NCBI RefSeq assembly: GCF_018977255.1 | Contig: NW_024704742.1 | Span: 73,596,001 to 73,660,000, forward strand | Reading direction: 5' to 3' | DNA length: 64,000 nt | Source: Callorhinchus milii | Taxonomy: Eukaryota | Shown here: piece after piece, positions 7,575 through 61,969 of the stretch | Layout: each line of letters opens with the position of its first letter | How positions within the stretch are numbered: the stretch's first letter is position 1 | Position numbers and translations under genes: made by a program | The notes under the pieces: model-generated | What the model was told of the DNA's origin: nothing | The model's database searches: none | What the model saw: only the letters and a program-made list of their open reading frames with translations

Positions 7575-9015
7575 TCATAGAATGTTACGGCACAGAAGGA
7601 GGACATTCGGCCCATCTTTGACAGAGCAAGTCACTTTCACTAACCCCAATCACCAGCTTTCTCCCCAAAACCCTGCAAACCCGTCTTCCCCAGATACCTA
7701 TCGAGTTTTCTCTTAAAGGCTGTTATCGAATCGGATTTCACTACCCTTTCAGGCAGATCCATGTAAATAACGTCCACCGCATTTCCCTCATCACCCCTCG
7801 CAGTCACCTCTTCAAAAAATTCTATTAGTTGGCTGTCTCTAATTACCTCGTGTTCCTCTAAGTAGAGATTTATTCTGTCTCGAATTATGGTCTCCAGTAG
7901 CTTTCCTATTACCGAAGTTAGGCTGACTGGCCTGTAATTTCCGGGTTTGTCTTTCTGCCCCTTTTTGTAGAAGGGGGTAACATTAGCCACTCTCCAATCT
8001 CTTGGCACCACTCCTGTATCCAATGAAGATTGAAATATAATGGCCAAAGCCTCTGCTATTTGAACCCGTATCTTCCACAGCAATCTTTTCAGAACTTCCT
8101 CTCTGTCTATAGTAATCTGATCTATTTACTCTGCTCCTCTATCTCACTCCGGCTGTCTGGTGGTCTATAGTAAACCCCTATCAGTGTAACCACTCCTTTC
8201 TTATTTCTTATCTCTAACCAGATGGATTCTGGTGTCGGGCCCTCCAGAGCCTCGTTCCTTTCTACAGCTATAATTGTATCCTTAACTAATATTGCCACCC
8301 CTCCTCCTTTTCTTCCTTCTCTATCCTTTCTGAACACATTATATCCTGTAATATTTAACTCCCATTCCTGTCCTGGCTTGAGCCATGTCTCAGTTACTGC
8401 CACCACATCGTAACCCCCGACGGCCAGTTGAACCTGCAGCTCATCAACCTTATTCCCTAAACTACGTGCATTTAGGTACATGCATTTGAGGAAATTGTCC
8501 GCTTGTACCTGCTCTACACTTCCCACTTGTCTTTTTCCTTTAATCTCTAATCCATTGTTTATCCTTGGATACCCATCCCCCCTCAACACTGGTTTAAATC
8601 CGCCCCTACAGCATTTGATAGTCTCTTGGCAAGGAGCTCACCCCTGCCTTGTTTAAGTGCCGCCCATCCTCAAGGTAAAGATTCCACCTCCCCCAGTAGT
8701 GGTCACAATTGTCCAGAAAATGGAAACCTTCTTTTCCGGACCATTTCTCCAGCCAATCGTTCATGAGCCTGATCCTTTCATTATGGTGCCTTGTTGCCCG
8801 AGGTACCGGGAGTAACCCAGAGATCACCACCTTGGATGTTCTGGACTTGAGTTTGCTCCCCAGCTTTTGATACTCGCCCTGGAGCATCTCAGCCCTCTTC
8901 TTACCAATATCGTGGGTCCCCACATGGACCACGACTTCCGGACATTCTCCTTCCCCCCGAAGAATCTTGTCCATGCGCTCTGTGAAGTCCACTACCCTTG
9001 CACCAGGAAGGCAAT
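7575..9015 (-). mobile_element. CR1 LINE, internally deleted copy (ORF1 esterase piece + APE endonuclease N-terminus + RT pieces + 3' end)
   Basis: ORF 8606-8992 VVVHVGTHDIGKK..SKVVISGLLPVPRA is CR1 ORF1 SGNH/esterase-like. ORF 8122-8589 LKCMYLNARSLGNKVDEL..VAVTETW..GVYYRPP is APE. ORF 7640-8083 VPRDWRVANVTPFYKKG..PGNYRPVSLTSV is RT. CR1-type 3' end gatgggccgaatg..ttctatga at ~7575-7616. Confidence 0.92.
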
Positions 9016-9974
9016 AATTTGTTGTTTATATAAGATTTACAAACTTTGTAGGAAAACAAAAAGTACATTTGGCTGGAATGCAAGAAGACACCTTTGGACT
9101 AATTCAGTTAGAAAAAGGAGTCAAGAGAGAATGATAAGGGTGTAGGAGCAGTTGAAAAACACAAACACAAAAGTCTTCCAATATAATACCACAGGATAGT
9201 GCAAGAAAGAGGTTAAATCTTAAAGAAGATCCTGAGCATAGCGAAGTACCAGCATGCTGAATAGTTAGCTGGGTAAGTAGAATCAAGCCAACAGGAGAGA
9301 CAAATCTGATGACAGCTGAGTATTAAACAGAAAAGAACTGCAGTGGGCAGGGTGTGGGCCCGAGGGAAAGACAAAGCAAGCAGACTGGAGGAGACTGAGG
9401 TAGCTAAGCAAATTGACTCAATTTCGAGCAAAGTTCATGAGCTGCTTACATTTTGAATTCAGAGACACAGCAAAATCAGGAAGACAGGCTAAGGAGTCCT
9501 ATTCCAGCCAAGTCCAGCCCTGGTGAACAGTTCAACTTTGCTTGCTCTGCGTTGAATGTTTGAAGTTTTACAGCTGGAAACAGATTACCTTGGAACTATA
9601 TATATATATGCACATGAGTTAGTCTTTTGATTGACTTTATCCTCTTTTATACTTTAAGAGGCTCATTTACATTCATTACATCAAGAACATTAAATGAGCA
9701 CTAGCATTAGAATTCTAATGGGATCCACTGACCTAGTTATATTAAAAAAACTACAGCTAAATATTCGAGCATTTAATCTTTAGGTTTTTAACCCCTATGT
9801 AACTTGACTGAGCTATATTATAGTTTAATAAACACGTTGAGATTATGTGTCATAGAACCAAACAATAACTTTAAATTTACCAAATGCTCATACACAAAAG
9901 TATTTTTAGTGTCATTTCACTAATTTGTAGGAGGAAACGATGATCTATAATGAAACCTTATTGTGTATAGCATA

Positions 9975-22689: not shown

Positions 22690-22950
22690 CAGGCCTGTCT
22701 GCTACACGAGGTGGATGACAGGTACTAGGAACTCCCTGCGAGCAACACAGCTTAGCATGAATATCACTTAGCACAGCTTAGTATGAGAGCATTGCCACTA
22801 TCCTCCTGCCCACAGCTTGGACATGCATCCCTTCCCATTGAGTGACAGTTCCAGCAATTGGAGGTGTGGAGCTTGAGGAGCAGCTGCTTACCTCTCTGCT
22901 CACAGATCAACAAATCACTCGTTCATGGATTGTGCACAAACTGACTGTCA
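22690..22950 (-). mobile_element. Decayed non-LTR retrotransposon, same family as 23930-25460 (zinc-knuckle region)
   Basis: Aligns with 24100-24310; minus strand reads DACPSCGQEDSGNALILSC. Confidence 0.7.
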
Positions 22951-23930: not shown

Positions 23931-25460
23931 CCTAATTCTGGAAAGGATTAGGTGCAGGTTGGCAAGAGCCAAGGCTGGGGAACCACAGAGTGTGGGGTAT
24001 TGCTGGAATCTATCCAGCTAAAACTGCATAGCTTGCCATTGATATTGCTGTGTTGAAAGCTTTTCCACTGCTTGTCCAGCTAGGTTCACCCTATCCGTTA
24101 GGGCTTTGCCTTACAGGATTAACAGGAGATACGTGGAAAGAAACTCCCTGTGAGCTTCCCGGTGGGCAACGCATCTCAGTATGAAATACATGATAGCATT
24201 GCCAGCATCTTCCTGTCCACAACTCGGGCACACATCCCTTGCCATTGAGCGATGCTTTCACCAATTGGAGGTGTGGAGTTCAAGCATTAGCTGCTTGCCT
24301 CTCTACAGGTCAATCAAGGTGGAATCCAGGAGCTGGATGTACAAATGTGTGTTCACTAACTCGGACTCCAGGTAATGCTTTCCAGCACCTGTCGCCCCAA
24401 GCCTCAGAGTTTCCTCATCAGCTATTTGGTGAGCATCTGGCTTCAGTATGGTGGGAGGACCTTTACAGGATAGCTTGTGTCATGCCAGCCACCTTGATGT
24501 TCTCGAGTCCAATGCTGCGAATCAGGCTTACTCAGCATCAGCTGCTTAATTTAGGTCCTTATGTGGGGGGCCTTGGCAAATAGACATGCCGGCTATGAAG
24601 TCACCTCCGCTTAGCAACAGGTCAGTGTTGGCTGGAGCCCTCTCTCCCTTTAGCCGCTTCCCGTGTTTGCTACAAATCCACCTCACTGCTTGATCCTAGA
24701 CTTTGTAAATAGGTTGGAGGAAGTCTTTCTGCTGCTTCCCCAGGAGGTCAGATCCATGAAGGAAGACTGTTTGCACACAGGTCTTGTATACCACAAGACT
24801 GACCTGCATTAAGACCTTGCTGTCCTTGAAGAGTGATGAACACGACCAGAATCCCCTTGCGCCTTTTCAGGGCGGTCCTTCAGGGCAGTGTCCAGGCTGA
24901 AGTTGATGATCCCGAGATACCGATAAAAGTTAACAATTGGGACTGATGCCCTTTGGATCTTCCAATCAATTCCCTCAATGTCTTCCGTTGAGCCGTACAG
25001 GACCAGGATTCCGCACTTGGTGGCACCGACCACCATGTCCCACTGGTTGTCCAGTGTTCAAAATGGTGAGTGCAATGCAGAAGATCCCCAGGTGAGTCCG
25101 CCTCAGCGTAATAGCATCCTCAATCACAAGCACCGCAATCCTGTCAGAGAGGCCTGGAACAGATACACCAAGTCCTTCCCCTTTAATGCCATCCAACACA
25201 TCGTTGATGAAAACATCAAACAAGGTGGGTGACAATGGGCAGCCCTGCCTTACCCTCTTTCCAGATGGATGTGCTCACTGTCGATCCTGACATGGATCTT
25301 GGAGCTGGAGTACACATACCTTAAAATCCAGGATTCGGCCATGTACACCCATGGCTACTAGTTTCATCATGAGAGTCTCATGCGGTACTAGGTTGAAAGT
25401 CTTGCGAAAGTTGATGAACACAATGTAGATGGGTTTCCCCTCAGCCCTATGACATTCTGC
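23930..25460 (-). mobile_element. Decayed non-LTR retrotransposon ORF2 (RT plus C-terminal CCHC-like knuckle), not L2 or CR1; clade unassigned
   Basis: Minus-strand peptides YIVFINFRKTFNLVPHETLMMKL, RQGCPLSPTLFDVFINDVLDG..GVSVPGLSDRIAVLVIEDAITL, MVVGATKCGIL..VPIVNFYRYLGI, and CPSCGQEDAGNAIMYFILRC near 24170-24235. Confidence 0.8.
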
Positions 25461-42346: not shown

Positions 42347-43164
42347 AGGCAGTGTCCTGGTTACACTGCAGAATCTGTTACTATAATACTACTAATAATA
42401 GGAGATTCAGAGTGTTCACAGGAAATACACTAAACTGGTGTGACTGTGTAATTTGTTGATGAACATGGCAGTCAATTTGCACACAAAGATGCCCCACAAA
42501 TAGCTTGACTTCTTTATGTGGGGAATCCTGTTCTCAGTTGGGCTCTTGATCATTTGGGACCCAGAGTGCTTTCTACCAAGCCTACTCCCACACAGCCTTC
42601 CGCAGTCAGTAATAGAGAAAGAAATCAGCAATGGACATTGAGGCCAAGCTATCAACCACCTTAACAACAACTTACATTTATAAAACCCTTGTCACATAGG
42701 GCCTTAAAGCACTTGAATGGCACCCAGAGGGTAGAAAACTAAAGAGAAGAATAACAAGAAAATAACAAGACCCTATCCATAAGGCTTCTTTCACCAGAGA
42801 CTGCTGGGTGTGTGGTGAACGATAGATGTCACAGATGTGAGCAGTATTGAATAGTAACGGTGAGGCTGGGTGTGAAGGAAACTGCTTATTCTTGCTTCGC
42901 ATTATTTGTGAAAATAAACTTTGGGTCTAACTTGCTCAGTTGCACAAACCATTATGGAATTGATGTCCATCTCCTCTCACAGTAATTCTTATATAGTTTA
43001 TAAATAGTTCAATATGTTTTTGACATCTTGGACAGCAAGTTATTCAGAAATGTCAGAAATATATTGAACAATTTCTGAACTATATCAGATTTCTGAAAAT
43101 AATAAATTATTAAACAATAATAACAGTCTAGCTGTACTGCATTGGGAAGCTGAGGATAAATAAA

Positions 43165-44705: not shown

Positions 44706-44722
44706 AGATGATTTAAAATGAT

Positions 44723-45089
44723 AAACAAAGAGAGCTGGCAAAACTCAGCAGGTCAGGCAGCATCTATGGAGAAAGGAAAGTGAGTCAACGTTTTGGGTTC
44801 CACGACCCTTCGTCAGAACTTGATGGCTTTTAAACATCGTTTCTGTGCACCTCTATTGATGCTTGAAAGTGACAATCAAGCTCAGCTCTCCAGAGATCAT
44901 GGTCAAGCTGTCCAAAGTTCTGGTCAGTGCTCTGATCAGGTTATACCCTGGCCATGTTCTGACGAAGGGTCGGGGACCTGAAACGTTGACTCACTTTCCT
45001 TTCTCCATAGATGCTGCCTGACCTGCTGAGTTTTCCCAGCTCTCTCTGTTTTTGTTTCAGATTTCCAGCATCTGCAGTATTTTGTGTTT
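44723..45089 (+). mobile_element. Penelope-like (pLTR-derived) fold-back insertion: short inverted arm 44723-44820, captured spacer 44821-44955, long arm 44956-45089
   Basis: Arms are reverse complements over ~95 bp. Perfect 14-bp direct repeats tgatttaaaatgat flank the element (44709-44722 and 45090-45103). Arms contain a CTGACGA..GAAACGTT motif. The Penelope assignment rests on my recollection of similar pLTR sequences and their minimal hammerheads. Confidence 0.8.
44956..44991 (+). ncRNA. Minimal type-I hammerhead ribozyme-like motif
   Basis: gtt-CTGACGA-a-GGGTC-ggg-GACCT-GAAACGTT-gac: conserved core, 5-bp stem II, palindromic ACGT in place of stem III, short stem I (a)gtt/gac(t). Confidence 0.6.
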
Positions 45090-45575
45090 TGATTTAAAAT
45101 GATTGTGTTCTCAATTACCTAGATTGTATTTTGATCAAATAATCTCCTTTAAACAGATATGTAAATGTACGTTTTGTTGTTGCAAATTTTGCTGCTTAAT
45201 CATGAATTTTGTAGTGCATTTTATAAATGGAATGAGCAGCTACAGGCTCTCTGGTGACTGAGTGCTGTTGGAAGCTGATGTCTGCCAGTTTTATTGTACT
45301 TCAGGGAAGGCTGCTGTCCCAGATCAGGTTGGCCAGTGAGCTGCGAGACGAGCGTATTACAGTAGCGATCAGCTGGTTTACACCAAACTTATTCTGTCAG
45401 CAACATGTCATTTTGTACAGAAAGTCCCTGACAGACGTAACTGAGTTGGCATTAAATTTATTGCATCATGCACTTGTTTTTCCAGCTTCACAAGCTGGGT
45501 GACACACAATGCTTCACACAATATAAAACCAAATGTGGCTTGTTAACATGACACTACATCAATCAACCTATCCTG

Positions 45576-45732
45576 CAGAACTCACTGAGTGGCTTATCAA
45601 CACTGTTTCTGTGCACCTCTATTGGTGCTTGAAAGTGACAATCAAGCTCAGCTCTCCAGAGGTCATGGTCAAGCTGTCCAAAGCTCTGGCAAGTGCTCTG
45701 ATCAGGCTGTACCCTGGTCATGTACAGTTCTG
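45576..45732 (+). repeat. Donor of the spacer captured at 44821-44955
   Basis: 45605-45722 matches 44839-44956 at 110/118 positions by manual alignment. Confidence 0.92.
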
Positions 45733-46060
45733 GTCACCATAACATACAGATGCTGACCACTCCTTAGGGCAGTTCAGAAAATAACAATTAAGTTAATCTC
45801 CAGTACAGTATTTGTAAGGATGAGCTATGAGGAATGACTGTGGCTTGAAAGGAAGGGATCTCAGAGGGGATCTTAATAGAGGTAAGTGAGATGTTAAATG
45901 AGATTAGGAAAGTAAACCCAGATATGACAAAGCTGCAGAACAAGAGGACACAGGTTCAGTTATGAAGAAGAGACACCAGCAACAAGTTCCCAGGAAGGCT
46001 GGTTGAGGCCAGGATGCTGAACTCACTTACGAAACAGTTTGGTGCTGTAATGGAAAGACC
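45640..46060 (+). mobile_element. Old CR1 relic
   Basis: SSPEVMVKLSKALASALIRLYPGHVQFWSP resembles CR1 (K)S.EV.L.LYKALVRPHLEYCVQFWSP; followed by gagctatgagga..agaggggatcttaatagaggt. Confidence 0.65.
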
Positions 46061-47424: not shown

Positions 47425-47972
47425 TATGACCCATATGAAATCCACCACCTGTTCTCTCAACCCCATCCCTACCCCTCTCCTTACCTCCCAGCTCCACCTC
47501 CTTGCCCTTCTATTCACAGACATCATCAATCTGTCCTTGTCCAGTGGCACCATTCCCACCCCCTTAAAAACAGCCATCATCACCCCTATCCTCAAAAAAC
47601 GTTCCCTAGACCCATCCCTGCTCTCCAACTATCACCCCATCTCCAAACTCCCTTTCCTTTCCAAGGTCCTGGAATGAATTGTTGCTTCTCAGCTTCGTTC
47701 ATTCCTCTCCCGCCACTAACTTCACAAATCCCTTCAATTGGGTTTCCGTGCCGCCCACAGCACAGAAACAGCCTTGGTCAAAATGGCAAATGACACTTTG
47801 TCCATCTGTGACCAGGGCTCCCTTTGTCTCCTCGTCCTCCTTGACCTCTTTGCTGCCTTTGACTGTCGACCACTCTATCCACCTCTGGATATCCACCTCC
47901 CTGACTGTCCAGCACCTGGTGAGGTCCTCCTGACATGAAAGGCACTATACAAATGTAATTTGTTGTTGTTGT
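47425..47972 (+). mobile_element. L2 LINE, internally deleted (RT N-terminal part joined directly to the tail)
   Basis: [39 protein letters not shown], then the tail within ~50 bp. Confidence 0.88.
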
Positions 47973-48037
47973 GTACATGCGTCAGGGATTAATTCACTTC
48001 ATGCCAGTTTGTGAAACTTTGCCCTGTGCAAAATAGT

Positions 48038-50345
48038 TACAACAACAACACCAAGATTTCATTTATAGAGCGCCTTTCACGTCGGGAGGACGTCCCAAGG
48101 CGCTGGACAGTTGGGTCGGGACCCGAGCAGGGGGGAAATGGTCAGGGTGAGGGGAGGGAAGGGAGGGAGCGAGGAGGGGGTAGAGAGTCGGGAGGGGAGC
48201 TGAAGGCTCAGTCAAAGAAAAAGGTCTTGAGACCGGCCTTGAAGGAGGAAAGGGAGGAGGCGGCGAAGGCACTGGGGGATAGAGTTCCAGAGCCTCGGGG
48301 CTGAGAGGCTGAAGGCCCGGCCACCGATGGTAGGGCTGTTAGGGCGGGGTATGTGGAGCAGACCGGAGCCAGAGGAATGGAGGGTACGGGCAGGTAGGTA
48401 GGGGGTTAGTAGGTCAGAGAGGTAGGAGGGAGCGAGGCCGTGAATGGCCTTGTAGGTGAGGATGAGGATCTTGAATTTGATCCTCTGGGGGATGGGGAGC
48501 CAGTGGAGGTGAGCGAGGGTGGAAGTGATGTGGTCGCGAAGTCTGGTGCGGGACAGTACACGAGCTGCAGAGTTCTGAATGACCTGCAGTGTGGAGGGAG
48601 GTGGCGGGAAGGCCGGCGAGGAGAGAGTTCCCATAGTCCAGCCTTGAGATGATAAAGGCGTGGACCAGAGTTTCAGCCGTGTGAGGGGTGAGGTAGTGCC
48701 GTAGTCTGGCGATGTTTCAGAGGTGATGGAAGGCGGTGCCAGTTGTGGCGCAGATATGAGGGAGAAAGGACAGCTCAGGGTCGAACAGAACCCCGAGGTT
48801 CCTGACGGCTTTGAGAGGTGGAGAGTGCAGCCTTGGATGCTGATGCTGTCAGCGCCTGAGGTGCGGAGGCGCTGACGTGAGCCAATCAGGAGGGCCTCAG
48901 TTTTGCGCACGTTGAGCTGAAGAAAGTTGTCTCTCGTCCAGGACTCGATGTCGGACAGGCAGCTGTCAGGACATCGGGGGTCGTGGAGTTGAGGGTAGAG
49001 GAGGAAAGGTAGAGTTGGGTGTCATCCGCATACATGTGGAAGTTAACCCCATGTCTGCGGATGATGTCACCACAGGGGGAGCATATAGAGGGTGAAGAGG
49101 AGGGGACCGAGGACAGAGCCCTGAGGGACACCGCACGAGACAGTGCGGGGGGTGGAGGAAAAGTCGTTTGTGGAAACAAAGTGAAGACAGTGGGTGAGGT
49201 ACGACCTAAACCACTCAAGGACAGGGCCTTGAATGTTGAGGTGGGAGGACAAGCAGTGGAGGAGGATAGCGTGGTCGACCGTATCGAATGCGGCTGATAG
49301 GTCGAGGAGGATGAGGAGGCAGAGGGAACCCTGGTCGCAGATGGTCAAGATGGCATTGGTGACCTTGACCAGGGCAGTTTCAATGCTATGGGCAGCACGG
49401 AAACCCGACTGAAGGGGTTCGAATAATGAATGGGTGGAGAGGAAAGAGCGCAGCTGGGAGGCGACAACTCTTTCAAGGACCTTGGACAGGAAGGGGAGGT
49501 TGGAGATGGGCCGGTAGCTTGATAGCTGCGACGCATCAAGGGAGGGTTTTTTCAAAGTGGGAGTGATGGTGGCAGTTTTTAGGGAAATGGGAACAGAGCC
49601 AGAGGAGAGGGATAGGTTGATGATATCTGTGAGAAGTGGGACAAGGAGATGGAGCTGGGAGATAGGGAGTGGAATGGGGATGGGGTCAAGGGAGCAGGTG
49701 GTGGGTTTCAGGGACAGGATGAGGTTGGTGACAGTTGGTGGGGAAACGGGTTCGAAGGTGTGTAGGGGAGGATGGGTAGGGGTCGGAGTGTGGGATGGAA
49801 GGGGTGGTGGGTGGGTGGGTGGAAGTTGGAGGGGCAGTGACCGCGGAGCGGATCCCCTTGATTTTGGATTCAAGGAAATCCAGCATCTCCTCGCAGTGAA
49901 GGTTGGAGAAGATGACCTGCGCGGGGTGGTGGGGGACGGAGAAGTCGGGATGTGGTAGAAAACAGTAGCATGGGGTTGTTCTTCGCCTCCAGGATTATCC
50001 TGGAGTAGAAGGAAGACTTGGCCGAGGCTAGAGTGGAGCGGTAGATTTTGAGGAGGTCCGGCCAGATTTGTCGGTGGACCATTAGGCCAGATTTGAGGCA
50101 TGTGCGTTCAGCGGCCCGCACCTGGCTCTTCAGTGAGCGGAGGTGGCTGGTGAACCAGGGGGAGGAGCGAGAGTAAGAGACAGTACGGGAGGTGATGGGG
50201 GCAAGAGTGTCGAGTGTGGAGGAGAGGGTGTTGTGGAGGAGGGTGAGAGCAGAAGAGGGGTCAGTGAGGGATGAAGGCCAGAGGGAGAGGAGTTCAGATG
50301 ACTCCAAGGCAGCGGTTAGGGATTGTGGGGGTAACTTCTTCCACG
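48038..50345 (-). mobile_element. L2 LINE, long 5'-truncated young copy
   Basis: ORF 49067-50101 [60 protein letters not shown] in 48886-49218; (CAA)n tail at 48039. Confidence 0.93.
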
Positions 50346-53849: not shown

Positions 53850-54066
53850 CTAAATGTTTCCTTTGTTTTTCTTTCTCCGCCCCCTTCTCTGCTTGTCCGT
53901 ATAATCTGCTTCCTTCCAACATCCCCCAGTTCTGAGTAATGGTCATAGACCTGCAATTTTAATTAAATTTCCTATCTCCATAGATGCTGCCTGACTTGCT
54001 GAGTGTTCCAAGAGACTTCTGTTTTTGTTTCAGATTTTCAGCATCTGAAGTATTTTGCTTTATTTT
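53850..54066 (+). mobile_element. Solo, decayed Penelope-like terminal repeat (same family as 44956-45089)
   Basis: ccagttctgag..ggtcatagacctg..tctccatagatgctgcctgacttgctgagtgttcc..ctgtttttgtttcagattttcagcatctgaagtattttg. Confidence 0.78.
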
Positions 54067-54340: not shown

Positions 54341-54404
54341 GGCAAGGAAATCACAACAAAAACACCTTATATTTATTTATAGCCCTTCATGTAGGATAGT
54401 GTCA

Positions 54405-55093
54405 GGAGAAAGAGAAGCTGAGTGAAGGAGAGAGAGGGGAGAGAGGTAAATGAAGGAGAGAAAGGAGGAAGTGAGTGAAGGAGAGAGAGGAGGGAATGAG
54501 TAAAAGAGAGAGAGAAGGGAGTGAGTGAAGGAGAGAGAGAAGGGAATGAGTGAAGGAGAGAGGAGGGAATGAGTGAAGGAGAGAGAGGAGGGAAAGAGTG
54601 AAGGAGAGAGAGGAGGGAAAGAGTGAAGGAGAGAGAGGAGGGAAAGAGTGAAGGAGAGAGAGGAGGGAAAGAGTGAAGGAGAGAGAGGAGGGAAAGAGTG
54701 AAGGAGAGAGAGGAGGGAAAGAGTGAAGGAGAGAGAGGAGGGAAAGAGTGAAGGAGAGAGAGAGAGGAGGGAGGGAGTAAAGGGGAGAAAGGAGGGAGTG
54801 AGTGAAAGAGAGAAGAGGGAGTGATTGAAGGAGAGAGAGAGAGGAGGGAGGGAGTAAAGGGGAGAGAGAGGAGGGAGGGAGTGAAGGATAGAGAGGAGGG
54901 AGTGAGTGAAGGAGAGAGAGGAGGGAGTGAGTGAAGGAGAGAGAGGAGGGAGTGAGTGAAGGAGAGAGAGGAGGGAAAGAACGAAGGAGAGAGAGGAGGG
55001 AAAGAACGAAGGAGAGAGAGGAGGGAGGGAGTAAAGGGGAGAGAGAGGATGGAGTGAGTGAAGGAGAGAGAGGAGGGATTGAGTGAAGGGGGA
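54405..55093 (+). repeat. Polypurine minisatellite, ~25-bp unit (GAGTGAAGGAGAGAGAGGAGGGAAA)n
   Basis: Directly visible; several exact units at ~54570-54755. Confidence 0.95.
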
Positions 55094-55811
55094 AATGTTT
55101 TAGAAGCAGCGAATAAACTTAATCCAATCATCACTCAATCAACGTTTAAAAACTAAATATTGCATTGTCATTTCACTGGAAATATATTCCCCTCCACAGA
55201 GTAGCGGCCGACCTGCCCGTGTGCAGAAAATGTTATTGTAATAAGCCACGTGAAGCTACTCTGTAAAAATAACCTTTCCTTTACATTAGCATCGAACTGA
55301 ACGTTCAACAATTCCTTTGTTCATCCTCGGAAGCTGTGATTTATTGTGTAATTAGTGACTTTGAGGGTTACACGGCAATGATGTGCGAGAGTAAATGACA
55401 TACTTAGAGAATCCCTCAGGCAGGGTTCAAGTCAGTGGACAGCACAGAACAGCACTGCCGCAGCAACGCACACATGACTCACTGTGCCATTCACTGCAAG
55501 GGTCACCTTGGAATTTTTACGCAGTGAATGAAAGGGACTGCAGTAAACAGCACACAAGTTAAAGTCTTCAGGAAGCTGCTCTAGAGAGGAAATGATTTGA
55601 CTTTTTAAAGAAGGCTTCATCTTATAATTCTGAACAGAATCGAAACTAAATTGGAACAAGATTTCATTGTGAAATGGAATTTTTAATTAATACATTTTGC
55701 TGTTATCGATCCGATTACTGCAATTCTCAAACTTTCTGTTAATAATAAATGACATAAATCCAAGGATTATTGTATAAATCTTGCACAGTGTAACCTCTCT
55801 CCACAGTGTGT

Positions 55812-61530: not shown

Positions 61531-61683
61531 TTATAGTCTCTACATCAAATGCTATTATTATTATAATTAGATCTGGACCTGAGGATTTTAAAGTGCTTTT
61601 TCTGTTGTGTTTCCTGAACAACAGAAAGTACGATTAATAAAAGTTTTTGCAAAAAGGTTATGATTTCAAAATCAAAATGTACC

Positions 61684-61903
61684 CAAAACATAAAATACTG
61701 CAAATGCTGGAAATCTGAAACAAAAACGGAAGTCGCTGGGAACACTCAGCGGGTCAGGCAGCATGTATGGAGAAAGGAAAGTGAGTCAACGTTTCGAGTC
61801 CACGACCCTTCTGACGAAGAAGGGCCGTGGACTCGAAACGTTGACTCACTTTCCTTTCTCCATAGATGCTGCCTGACCTGCTGAGTGTTCCCAGCGACTT
61901 TTG
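61684..61903 (-). mobile_element. Penelope-like fold-back insertion without spacer (long arm 61684-61811, 7-nt centre, short arm 61819-61903)
   Basis: Near-perfect palindrome of ~82 bp per arm. Flanking 12-bp direct repeats tcaaaatgtacc (61672-61683) and tcaaattgtacc (61904-61915) have one mismatch. Confidence 0.82.
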
Positions 61904-61969
61904 TCAAATTGTACCTGGTTATTTGTTTTTCCAATGTACAGAACAAGCTACACCTAGAGTACTGCTCTA

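Follow-up and report, generated by a model that had tools for sequence, protein, structure and literature searches.

Host DNA most likely copied from a nearby donor between the arms of a Penelope-like insertion, with twin priming and a templated bridge as a possible route

A 367-nt insertion (44723-45089), located in a 64,000-nt window (the whole stretch of DNA that was analysed), consists of an antisense arm of 98 nt, a spacer of 135 nt and a sense arm of 134 nt, and its spacer closely resembles host DNA lying about half a kilobase away, the ends of which match the arm ends at both junctions. We put at about even the prospect that the structure arose in one Penelope-like insertion event, in which twin priming was completed by a templated patch acting as a bridge; the broader reading, a two-ended join via a templated patch at or after insertion, we consider probable.

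The insertion is enclosed by a target-site duplication (TSD) whose left copy, TGATTTAAAATGAT (44709-44722), is identical at 14 of 14 positions to its right partner (45090-45103). The short, tail-less arm (44723-44820, minus strand, 98 nt) has the inner end CAGAACT on the top strand, and its hammerhead GAAA box is broken. It is followed by the spacer (44821-44955, plus strand, 135 nt), a direct-orientation copy of 45583-45725 (blastn E 1e-49), and by the long arm (44956-45089, plus strand, 134 nt), which begins with GTTCTG and carries a one-sided tail of 38 nt (45052-45089, plus strand) that is missing from the short arm. The left arm thus ends at 44820 with CGTCAGAACT and the right arm starts at 44956 with GTTCTGACG. 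The insertion has the head-to-head layout known for units of Penelope-like elements and contains a minimal hammerhead; it is a dead scar for which no function is implied; the arm showed no open frame in the frame tried, and a bacterial promoter scan of the window DNA was empty, and irrelevant here. Loose ends of family contigs were found at 45091, the outer end of the long arm, in runs X1 and X4, and none of the pieces listed, in 4 of the 24 listed runs, was a contig spanning the whole element.

A motif scan, read against the description available in PMC4209133, located a putative minimal hammerhead at 44956-44992 (plus strand), composed of a helix I strand, CTGACGA, an unpaired A, helix II (GGGTC/GACCT), GAAAC-GTT and the helix I strand GAC. 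The candidate pattern CTGACGA...GAAAC-GTT with a 5-bp helix II and a short helix I occurs at both 44959 and 61811. An Rfam search of the element returned generic hairpins and no hammerhead match, and the active shape was not obtained in predicted monomer folds of the motif. The window holds three family loci, two of which are inverted head-to-head pairs of 5'-truncated copies, with one-sided tails of 38 nt (the spacer-bearing element) and 43 nt (the element at 61.7 kb) and with TSDs at AT-rich targets (14/14 and 11/12 identical). The remaining locus is an older solo arm (53927-54057, plus strand), 72-78% identical to the other arms, which shows how the family reads upstream of GTTCTG and for which no TSD was found. 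The arm family is very abundant: the summed contig depth of the arms, which is not a copy number, was at least 10,000-fold above unique DNA in all four of four runs. No GIY-YIG domain was found in the 39 scanned of the 71 window frames of at least 110 aa, and the RT and AP-endonuclease matches among these 39 frames sit in other, LINE-type repeats; no coding part was found, and membership in the Penelope-like elements therefore rests on architecture. Pattern scans for further family copies outside the window gave none in viral contigs and, in metagenomes, none and then 11, all of which covered just 21-27 nt and were discarded as chance.

Two observations concern the inner ends of the arms in the wider family. 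Joints in run X4 (from 44768-44819 to 44957-44995; 12 of 567 rows listed) show other copies in which one arm is connected to the other across 2-24 letters, with connection points that vary in and near the hammerhead. The solo arm has at 53867-53934 a 60-nt tract of 82% pyrimidines that ends in CAG right before TTCTGA, so that hammerhead helix I is preceded at its 5' end by what resembles a 3' splice site; the Penelope intron of D. virilis has been reported to end at helix I (PMC4209133). All four paired arms begin within ~10 nt of this CAG/TTCTGA point, and their common start might reflect a source RNA with a spliced or short 5' end.

The donor core (45583-45725, plus strand) is single-copy host DNA without a protein-family match in a Pfam search, and in each of two other species its flanks and core lie on one contig. 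It is bounded on the left by CAGAACT (45576-45582, plus strand) and on the right by CAGTTCTG (45725-45732, plus strand), which matches the family over 8 nt, 6 of them kept in the element. An earlier note on this DNA had reported the donor ends CAGAACT (45576-45582) and AGTTCTG (45726-45732) together with the arm-end coordinates, and all proved correct on re-check; the match that it gave for the right arm is present as GTTCTG at 44956, with six of its seven letters retained. Because the solo copy at 53927 reads CAGTTCTG at the point where the right arm starts, the right match was probably 8 nt long originally. In the alignment of spacer and donor, 12 positions are substituted and three gaps (3, 1 and 5 nt) occur, each gap no more than ~10 nt from a junction and none in the ~130-nt core, which bears out the small deletions noted earlier at both junctions (3+1 nt at one and 5 nt at the other). 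The inverted pair in the donor restates one fact, namely that the donor ends match the arm ends and the arms are inverted.

The double end match is beyond chance. In a test designed post hoc, with the junctions already seen, a 132-nt core was placed at 122,508 control positions over the two window strands, and no placement matched at both ends (expected, ~1e-6); single-end match rates within 7 nt were 4.6e-4 and 1.6e-3 (product ~7e-7), and the both-end chance was 1e-5 when 30 nt were allowed. Leaving aside pairs that involve the element, the donor is the sole CAGAACT...AGTTCTG pair of less than 1 kb in the window; it sits 472-629 nt beyond the TSD and lay as far from the target before insertion. 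Within 6 kb, the cDNA end has a single 8-nt match, CAGTTCTG at 45725, and its nearest 7-nt match is at 45576. When 45576-45732 was compared with 44814-44961, primer repeat, insert and microhomology repeat formed one direct repeat. The opening step proposed in the earlier note, microhomology-primed copying of neighbouring DNA by a cDNA end, is well supported by the double match and by these nearest and only matches.

Other accounts of the donor were tried and rejected. As an exon, it is spanned by a 71-aa open frame whose best Pfam match (E 0.12) fell under the cut-off, and a base at 45596, which bears on this reading, is missing in both other species. A donor hairpin joining its ends scored z -1.04, and the predicted fold leaves the two 7-mers unpaired. 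Within the spacer, 44916-44922 reads AGTTCTG against AGCTCTG in the donor, either a chance substitution or a third ancestral match that was lost in the donor.

Most likely the donor is the ancestral host sequence, from which the spacer was copied, because two other species have the donor in place on contigs that cross its boundaries, the element is less diverged, and the donor shows neither a flanking duplication nor decayed arms in its flanks. Runs X1 and X4, from these two species, each yielded one contig that covers 45117-45765 and crosses both donor boundaries, with 86 and 80 letters differing (13.3% and 12.3%). Divergence inside the element, pooled from arm-arm (5/86) and spacer-donor (12/135) comparisons, is 17/221 (p 0.03 and 0.06 against the two contigs), so the element appears, on these counts, younger than the split from the two species. 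Direct repeats on either side of the donor do not exceed 4 nt. That the donor flanks are a decayed older arm pair was hinted at by scattered words to the right of the donor and was rejected, with local P values of 0.11-0.48 and, in an anchored test of the flanks against the arm pair, a lowest P of 0.045 among 24 comparisons, most of which exceeded 0.2. Copying in the reverse direction, by which a 157-nt stretch would have left the element centre with 7-8 nt of each arm, would make the inverted pair trivial and would explain the boundaries without selection for microhomology, but the contigs that traverse the donor, the apparent youth of the element and the lack of longer direct repeats beside the donor all speak against it, and we consider it very improbable.

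An empty site was not seen among 15 of 1,502 joints listed, in 4 of the 24 listed runs. Depth over a spacer-only bin (44857-44907) was 0 in X1 and X4, 8.6 in X15 and 2.3 in X16, two runs that may be from the window's own source; the zero depth was not used as evidence of absence because no listed contig joins across the site. Spacer and arms differ at 12/135 and 5/86 positions (p 0.45), and the spacer is thus not younger than the arms; the A/T excess at spacer transitions (7/9, p 0.18) was not significant. At 45765, 33 nt to the right of the donor, the contigs of both species quit aligning though their records continue, a breakpoint that they share against this genome.

A second element in the window provides a comparison. 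The sister element (61684-61903, 220 nt) is spacer-less, with the centre CCCTTC-TGACGAA-GAAGGG, and lies within a TSD (61672-61683 / 61904-61915) identical at 11 of 12 positions; its left half is the long antisense arm with the 43-nt tail and its right half the short sense arm. Arm identity within each of the two elements is 94.2% (5/86 differences in each) and between elements 86.0-89.5%, which agrees, for the two elements in the window, with the earlier statement that the arms of each element share variants. Among seven informative sites, six group the arms by element, one by long and short arm and none crosswise (Fisher p 0.03, the pairs being non-independent). The shared variants that the earlier note had cited for its fold-back model are therefore real and, from the sequence, show a common source, but they do not discriminate between that model and twin priming because both give a common source. 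Under twin priming, six element-specific variants mean that both cDNAs came from one source locus or were later converted.

The two short arms end, to within 3 nt, at a single family position, which is the tail boundary. One informative site separates the long arms from the short ones, and there, 3-6 nt from the outer end, the short arms both carry T; the short-arm outer ends (44723-44730 and 61897-61903) read TTTGT and the long arms CTGT or CCGT, and the TTTGT end may have arisen by substitution or by slippage of 6 nt between GTTT repeats as a second priming began. The loop at 61.7 kb reads in cDNA polarity on the bottom strand, the strand primed at the tail-less arm (n = 1), and the sister centre is explained by two cDNAs annealing via TTC(T)/(A)GAA. 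Fold-back of a target-primed cDNA would put the loop in cDNA polarity on the longer, first-made arm, which is not what the sister has (n = 1), and the spacer-bearing element does not discriminate on this point.

For the single event that we favour, the following order of steps is proposed. The endonuclease of the element would make two nicks in an AT-rich site, one per strand and 14 nt apart, a spacing recorded in the TSD. Each 3' end would prime its own cDNA on the same source RNA, in keeping with the architecture, with the long arm made from the initiation site at the tail end and the short arm from a site ~40 nt further in; such twin priming is suggested by findings in PMC11167929. Judging from the arm ends, both cDNAs would terminate at hammerhead helix I in CAGAACT-3', and identical ends cannot pair. 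One end would then anneal to the nearest 7-8-nt match, 0.5-0.6 kb off, and be extended by ~150 nt until it gained AGTTCTG-3', consistent with the sequence signature at donor and junctions. Most simply, the right flank would undergo 5' resection, leaving the bottom strand exposed for the short-arm cDNA to prime at 45576 in trans; loop-out from the long arm would give the same product. The new end would release and pair with the CAGAACT of the other cDNA, and fill-in and ligation would complete the join with small slips at both junctions, the bridging polymerase being perhaps host polymerase theta or the RT of the element itself.

Twin priming with a bridge is favoured by the direct repeat on one side of the break, which is the signature of loop-out/trans SD-MMEJ, and by the two tails (38 and 43 nt) together with short-arm ends that lie no more than 3 nt apart. 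The double end match, the nearest and only matches within 6 kb, the donor carried in place by two other species, the sister centre, the T shared by the short arms, and published findings on the lizard element (PMC11167929) and on L1 (PMC11702581) count in its favour as well. Against it count the small sample (one spacer-bearing element and one spacer-less pair), the donor distance of 472-629 nt, which far exceeds the ~30 bp of the SD-MMEJ assay, and the argument of PMC3846280 that Penelope inverted repeats stem from self-priming. Deletions beside both matches are not predicted by clean microhomology priming, and neither this model nor fold-back of a single cDNA explains them except as slips.

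The earlier note had instead proposed that the long-arm cDNA, after jumping to genomic AGTTCTG and copying ~150 nt, folds on its own CAGAACT and copies itself; for the short arm to result, this self-copy would be halted or cut at the tail boundary. Such snap-back agrees with the geometry and with both microhomologies, it yields the shared arm variants for free, which counts against twin priming, and in published work self-priming has been proposed for Penelope palindromes (PMC3846280) and the tail was once attributed to endonuclease resolution (PMC8557442). At the sister element, however, the top strand should read CCCTTC-GTCA-GAAGGG if the tailed arm had snapped back, whereas this reading is found on the opposite strand and so on the wrong arm, and snap-back from the short arm could not make the 43-nt tail; this argument would be undone if the sister loop flipped later via recombination between the arms, as it could have. 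The short arms also end at a fixed site that corresponds to an RT start site in a relative (PMC11167929), and the cDNA would need to enter its own duplex flank. Five fold-back sites of 6-8 nt, one of them 8 nt (after 95 nt), lie earlier inside the arm and were bypassed, the actual join being a 7-nt match at the extreme end of the arm, where a second free cDNA end would sit; these passed-over sites weigh only modestly against snap-back. On the evidence of the two elements we regard snap-back as possible but rather unlikely, and the earlier model is supported in its copying step and disfavoured in its folding step.

A separation into two events would leave the same junction chemistry and remove its link to retrotransposition: a spacer-less hairpin inserts, its centre is later broken by cruciform or hairpin cleavage, and the symmetric ends are rejoined by a templated patch. 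Palindrome centres are unstable, and spacer-less centres do exist, at 61.7 kb and in the X4 joint 44819-44957 with 2 letters between; a later break at the centre of such a hairpin would give an identical sequence and would explain why both arms end at the same base. Yet the spacer is not younger than the arms, and the break must therefore have followed soon after insertion, which leads us to regard this sequence of events as unlikely. A further reading is an unintegrated hairpin, either self-primed antisense RNA or cDNA, that had already taken up the donor before it inserted close by and that a single round of copying read from the tail end through the loop. This would yield the loop orientation at 61.7 kb together with identical arms and stands near the antisense self-priming proposal of PMC3846280. 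It leaves the fixed short-arm end unexplained, however, and capture would precede integration, which must nevertheless fall within 0.5 kb of the donor; we judge it quite improbable.

The element, the tail, the hammerhead, the capture of host DNA between pLTRs (PMC3846280) and local templated insertion are each already known in the literature covered. Within that literature, whose coverage was incomplete, inter-arm Penelope DNA traced to a nearby donor with microhomology at two ends was not found, PMC3846280 being the closest, and the available part of a 2026 retrozyme preprint holds nothing on traced local donors. A wider claim, which we hold to be doubtful, is that the Penelope-like dimer routinely primes both nicks on one RNA segment and that its telomerase-like RT bridges the ends by way of a stalled hammerhead-end cDNA on nearby DNA. 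If it were true, many of the numerous cartilaginous-fish copies would carry loops copied from their own flanks, and the element would be a steady source of hairpin-set local duplications and a large fossil record of its insertion mechanism. The locus offers two read-outs that separate the models in any assembly, namely which arm carries the loop, and the side and orientation of the donor; since the arm family is very abundant, such a test in assemblies is cheap.

The window is repeat-rich animal DNA with LINE-type fragments (RT and AP-endonuclease domains) and many short interspersed repeats. Older local direct duplications were observed at 1527-1647 / 2640-2759 (73% identity, 1.1 kb apart) and at 22783-22897 / 24190-24304 (79%, 1.4 kb apart); these two, of ~120-200 nt, have no further copy in the window and could stem from old templated copying or be repeats of low copy number. 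We also observed an AT-rich imperfect palindrome of ~110 nt (42984-43092, single copy in the window), inverted LINE fragments (47436-47885 / 49259-49710 and 47904-48111) with a short palindrome where two copies meet, a LINE 5' region on the minus strand (7640-9025) in which Pfam marks a GDSL esterase-like frame and, after it, an AP endonuclease frame, and a minisatellite (54380-55161) of more than 20 purine-rich 25-nt units.

Among known systems, the nearest in architecture are the EN+ Penelope-like units, whose standard form is described as truncated copies set head to head, one end bearing a tail of 30-40 bp, and whose inverted repeats are said to form by an undefined process (PMC8557442). 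The present element shares with them the inverted 5'-truncated copy, the one-sided tail of ~40 nt, the short AT-rich TSD and the minimal hammerhead, the last of which was described for Penelope-like elements in PMC4209133 and agrees with 44956-44992; it differs in having no coding part here and in that the inter-arm DNA of published units is not traced to a donor in the texts available. Opposite-strand hammerhead pairs 100-700 bp apart, comparable to the arms here, have been noted in Schistosoma. In the Penelope-like element of the green anole, both DNA strands are nicked and extended in vitro, the tail lies between two RT start sites and the protein is predicted to be dimeric (PMC11167929). 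Pseudo-LTR capture in Adineta vaga (PMC3846280), where self-priming is argued to be the origin of Penelope inverted repeats, likewise places unrelated sequence between pLTRs inside the TSD, but the Pen1 spacers are 0.9-1.5 kb, the pLTRs are mostly direct, and the available text names no local donor or junction microhomology, whereas the present donor lies 0.5 kb away and matches at both ends.

With regard to repair, loop-out/trans SD-MMEJ (PMC5728401) shows the same succession of primer repeat, insert and microhomology repeat on one side of the break, with the last microhomology pairing with the other broken end and not with the same strand. The repeat layout and above-chance microhomology were found here and the closeness of the template was not, as the donor lies 472-629 nt off with an insert of ~140 nt, compared with tens of bp in the assay; in addition, both ends here are retroelement cDNA, and one 7-mer acts as primer and, inverted, as microhomology repeat. 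Given a scale so far beyond the assay, we say that the event works like SD-MMEJ, not that it is shown to be SD-MMEJ. In LINE-1 experiments (PMC11702581), oppositely oriented RT products have been explained by two extended ends being joined, and DNA templated close to the site was present in three insertions. The two systems have in common the extension of both target ends by RT, the retained TSD, the inner microhomology and the occasional nearby DNA, and oppositely oriented products within an intact TSD with inner microhomology are indeed what we observed. The L1 copies, in contrast, are adjacent and derive from nearly non-overlapping parts of the RNA, whereas adjacent segments are not seen in the present element and both of its ends copy the same 98 nt.
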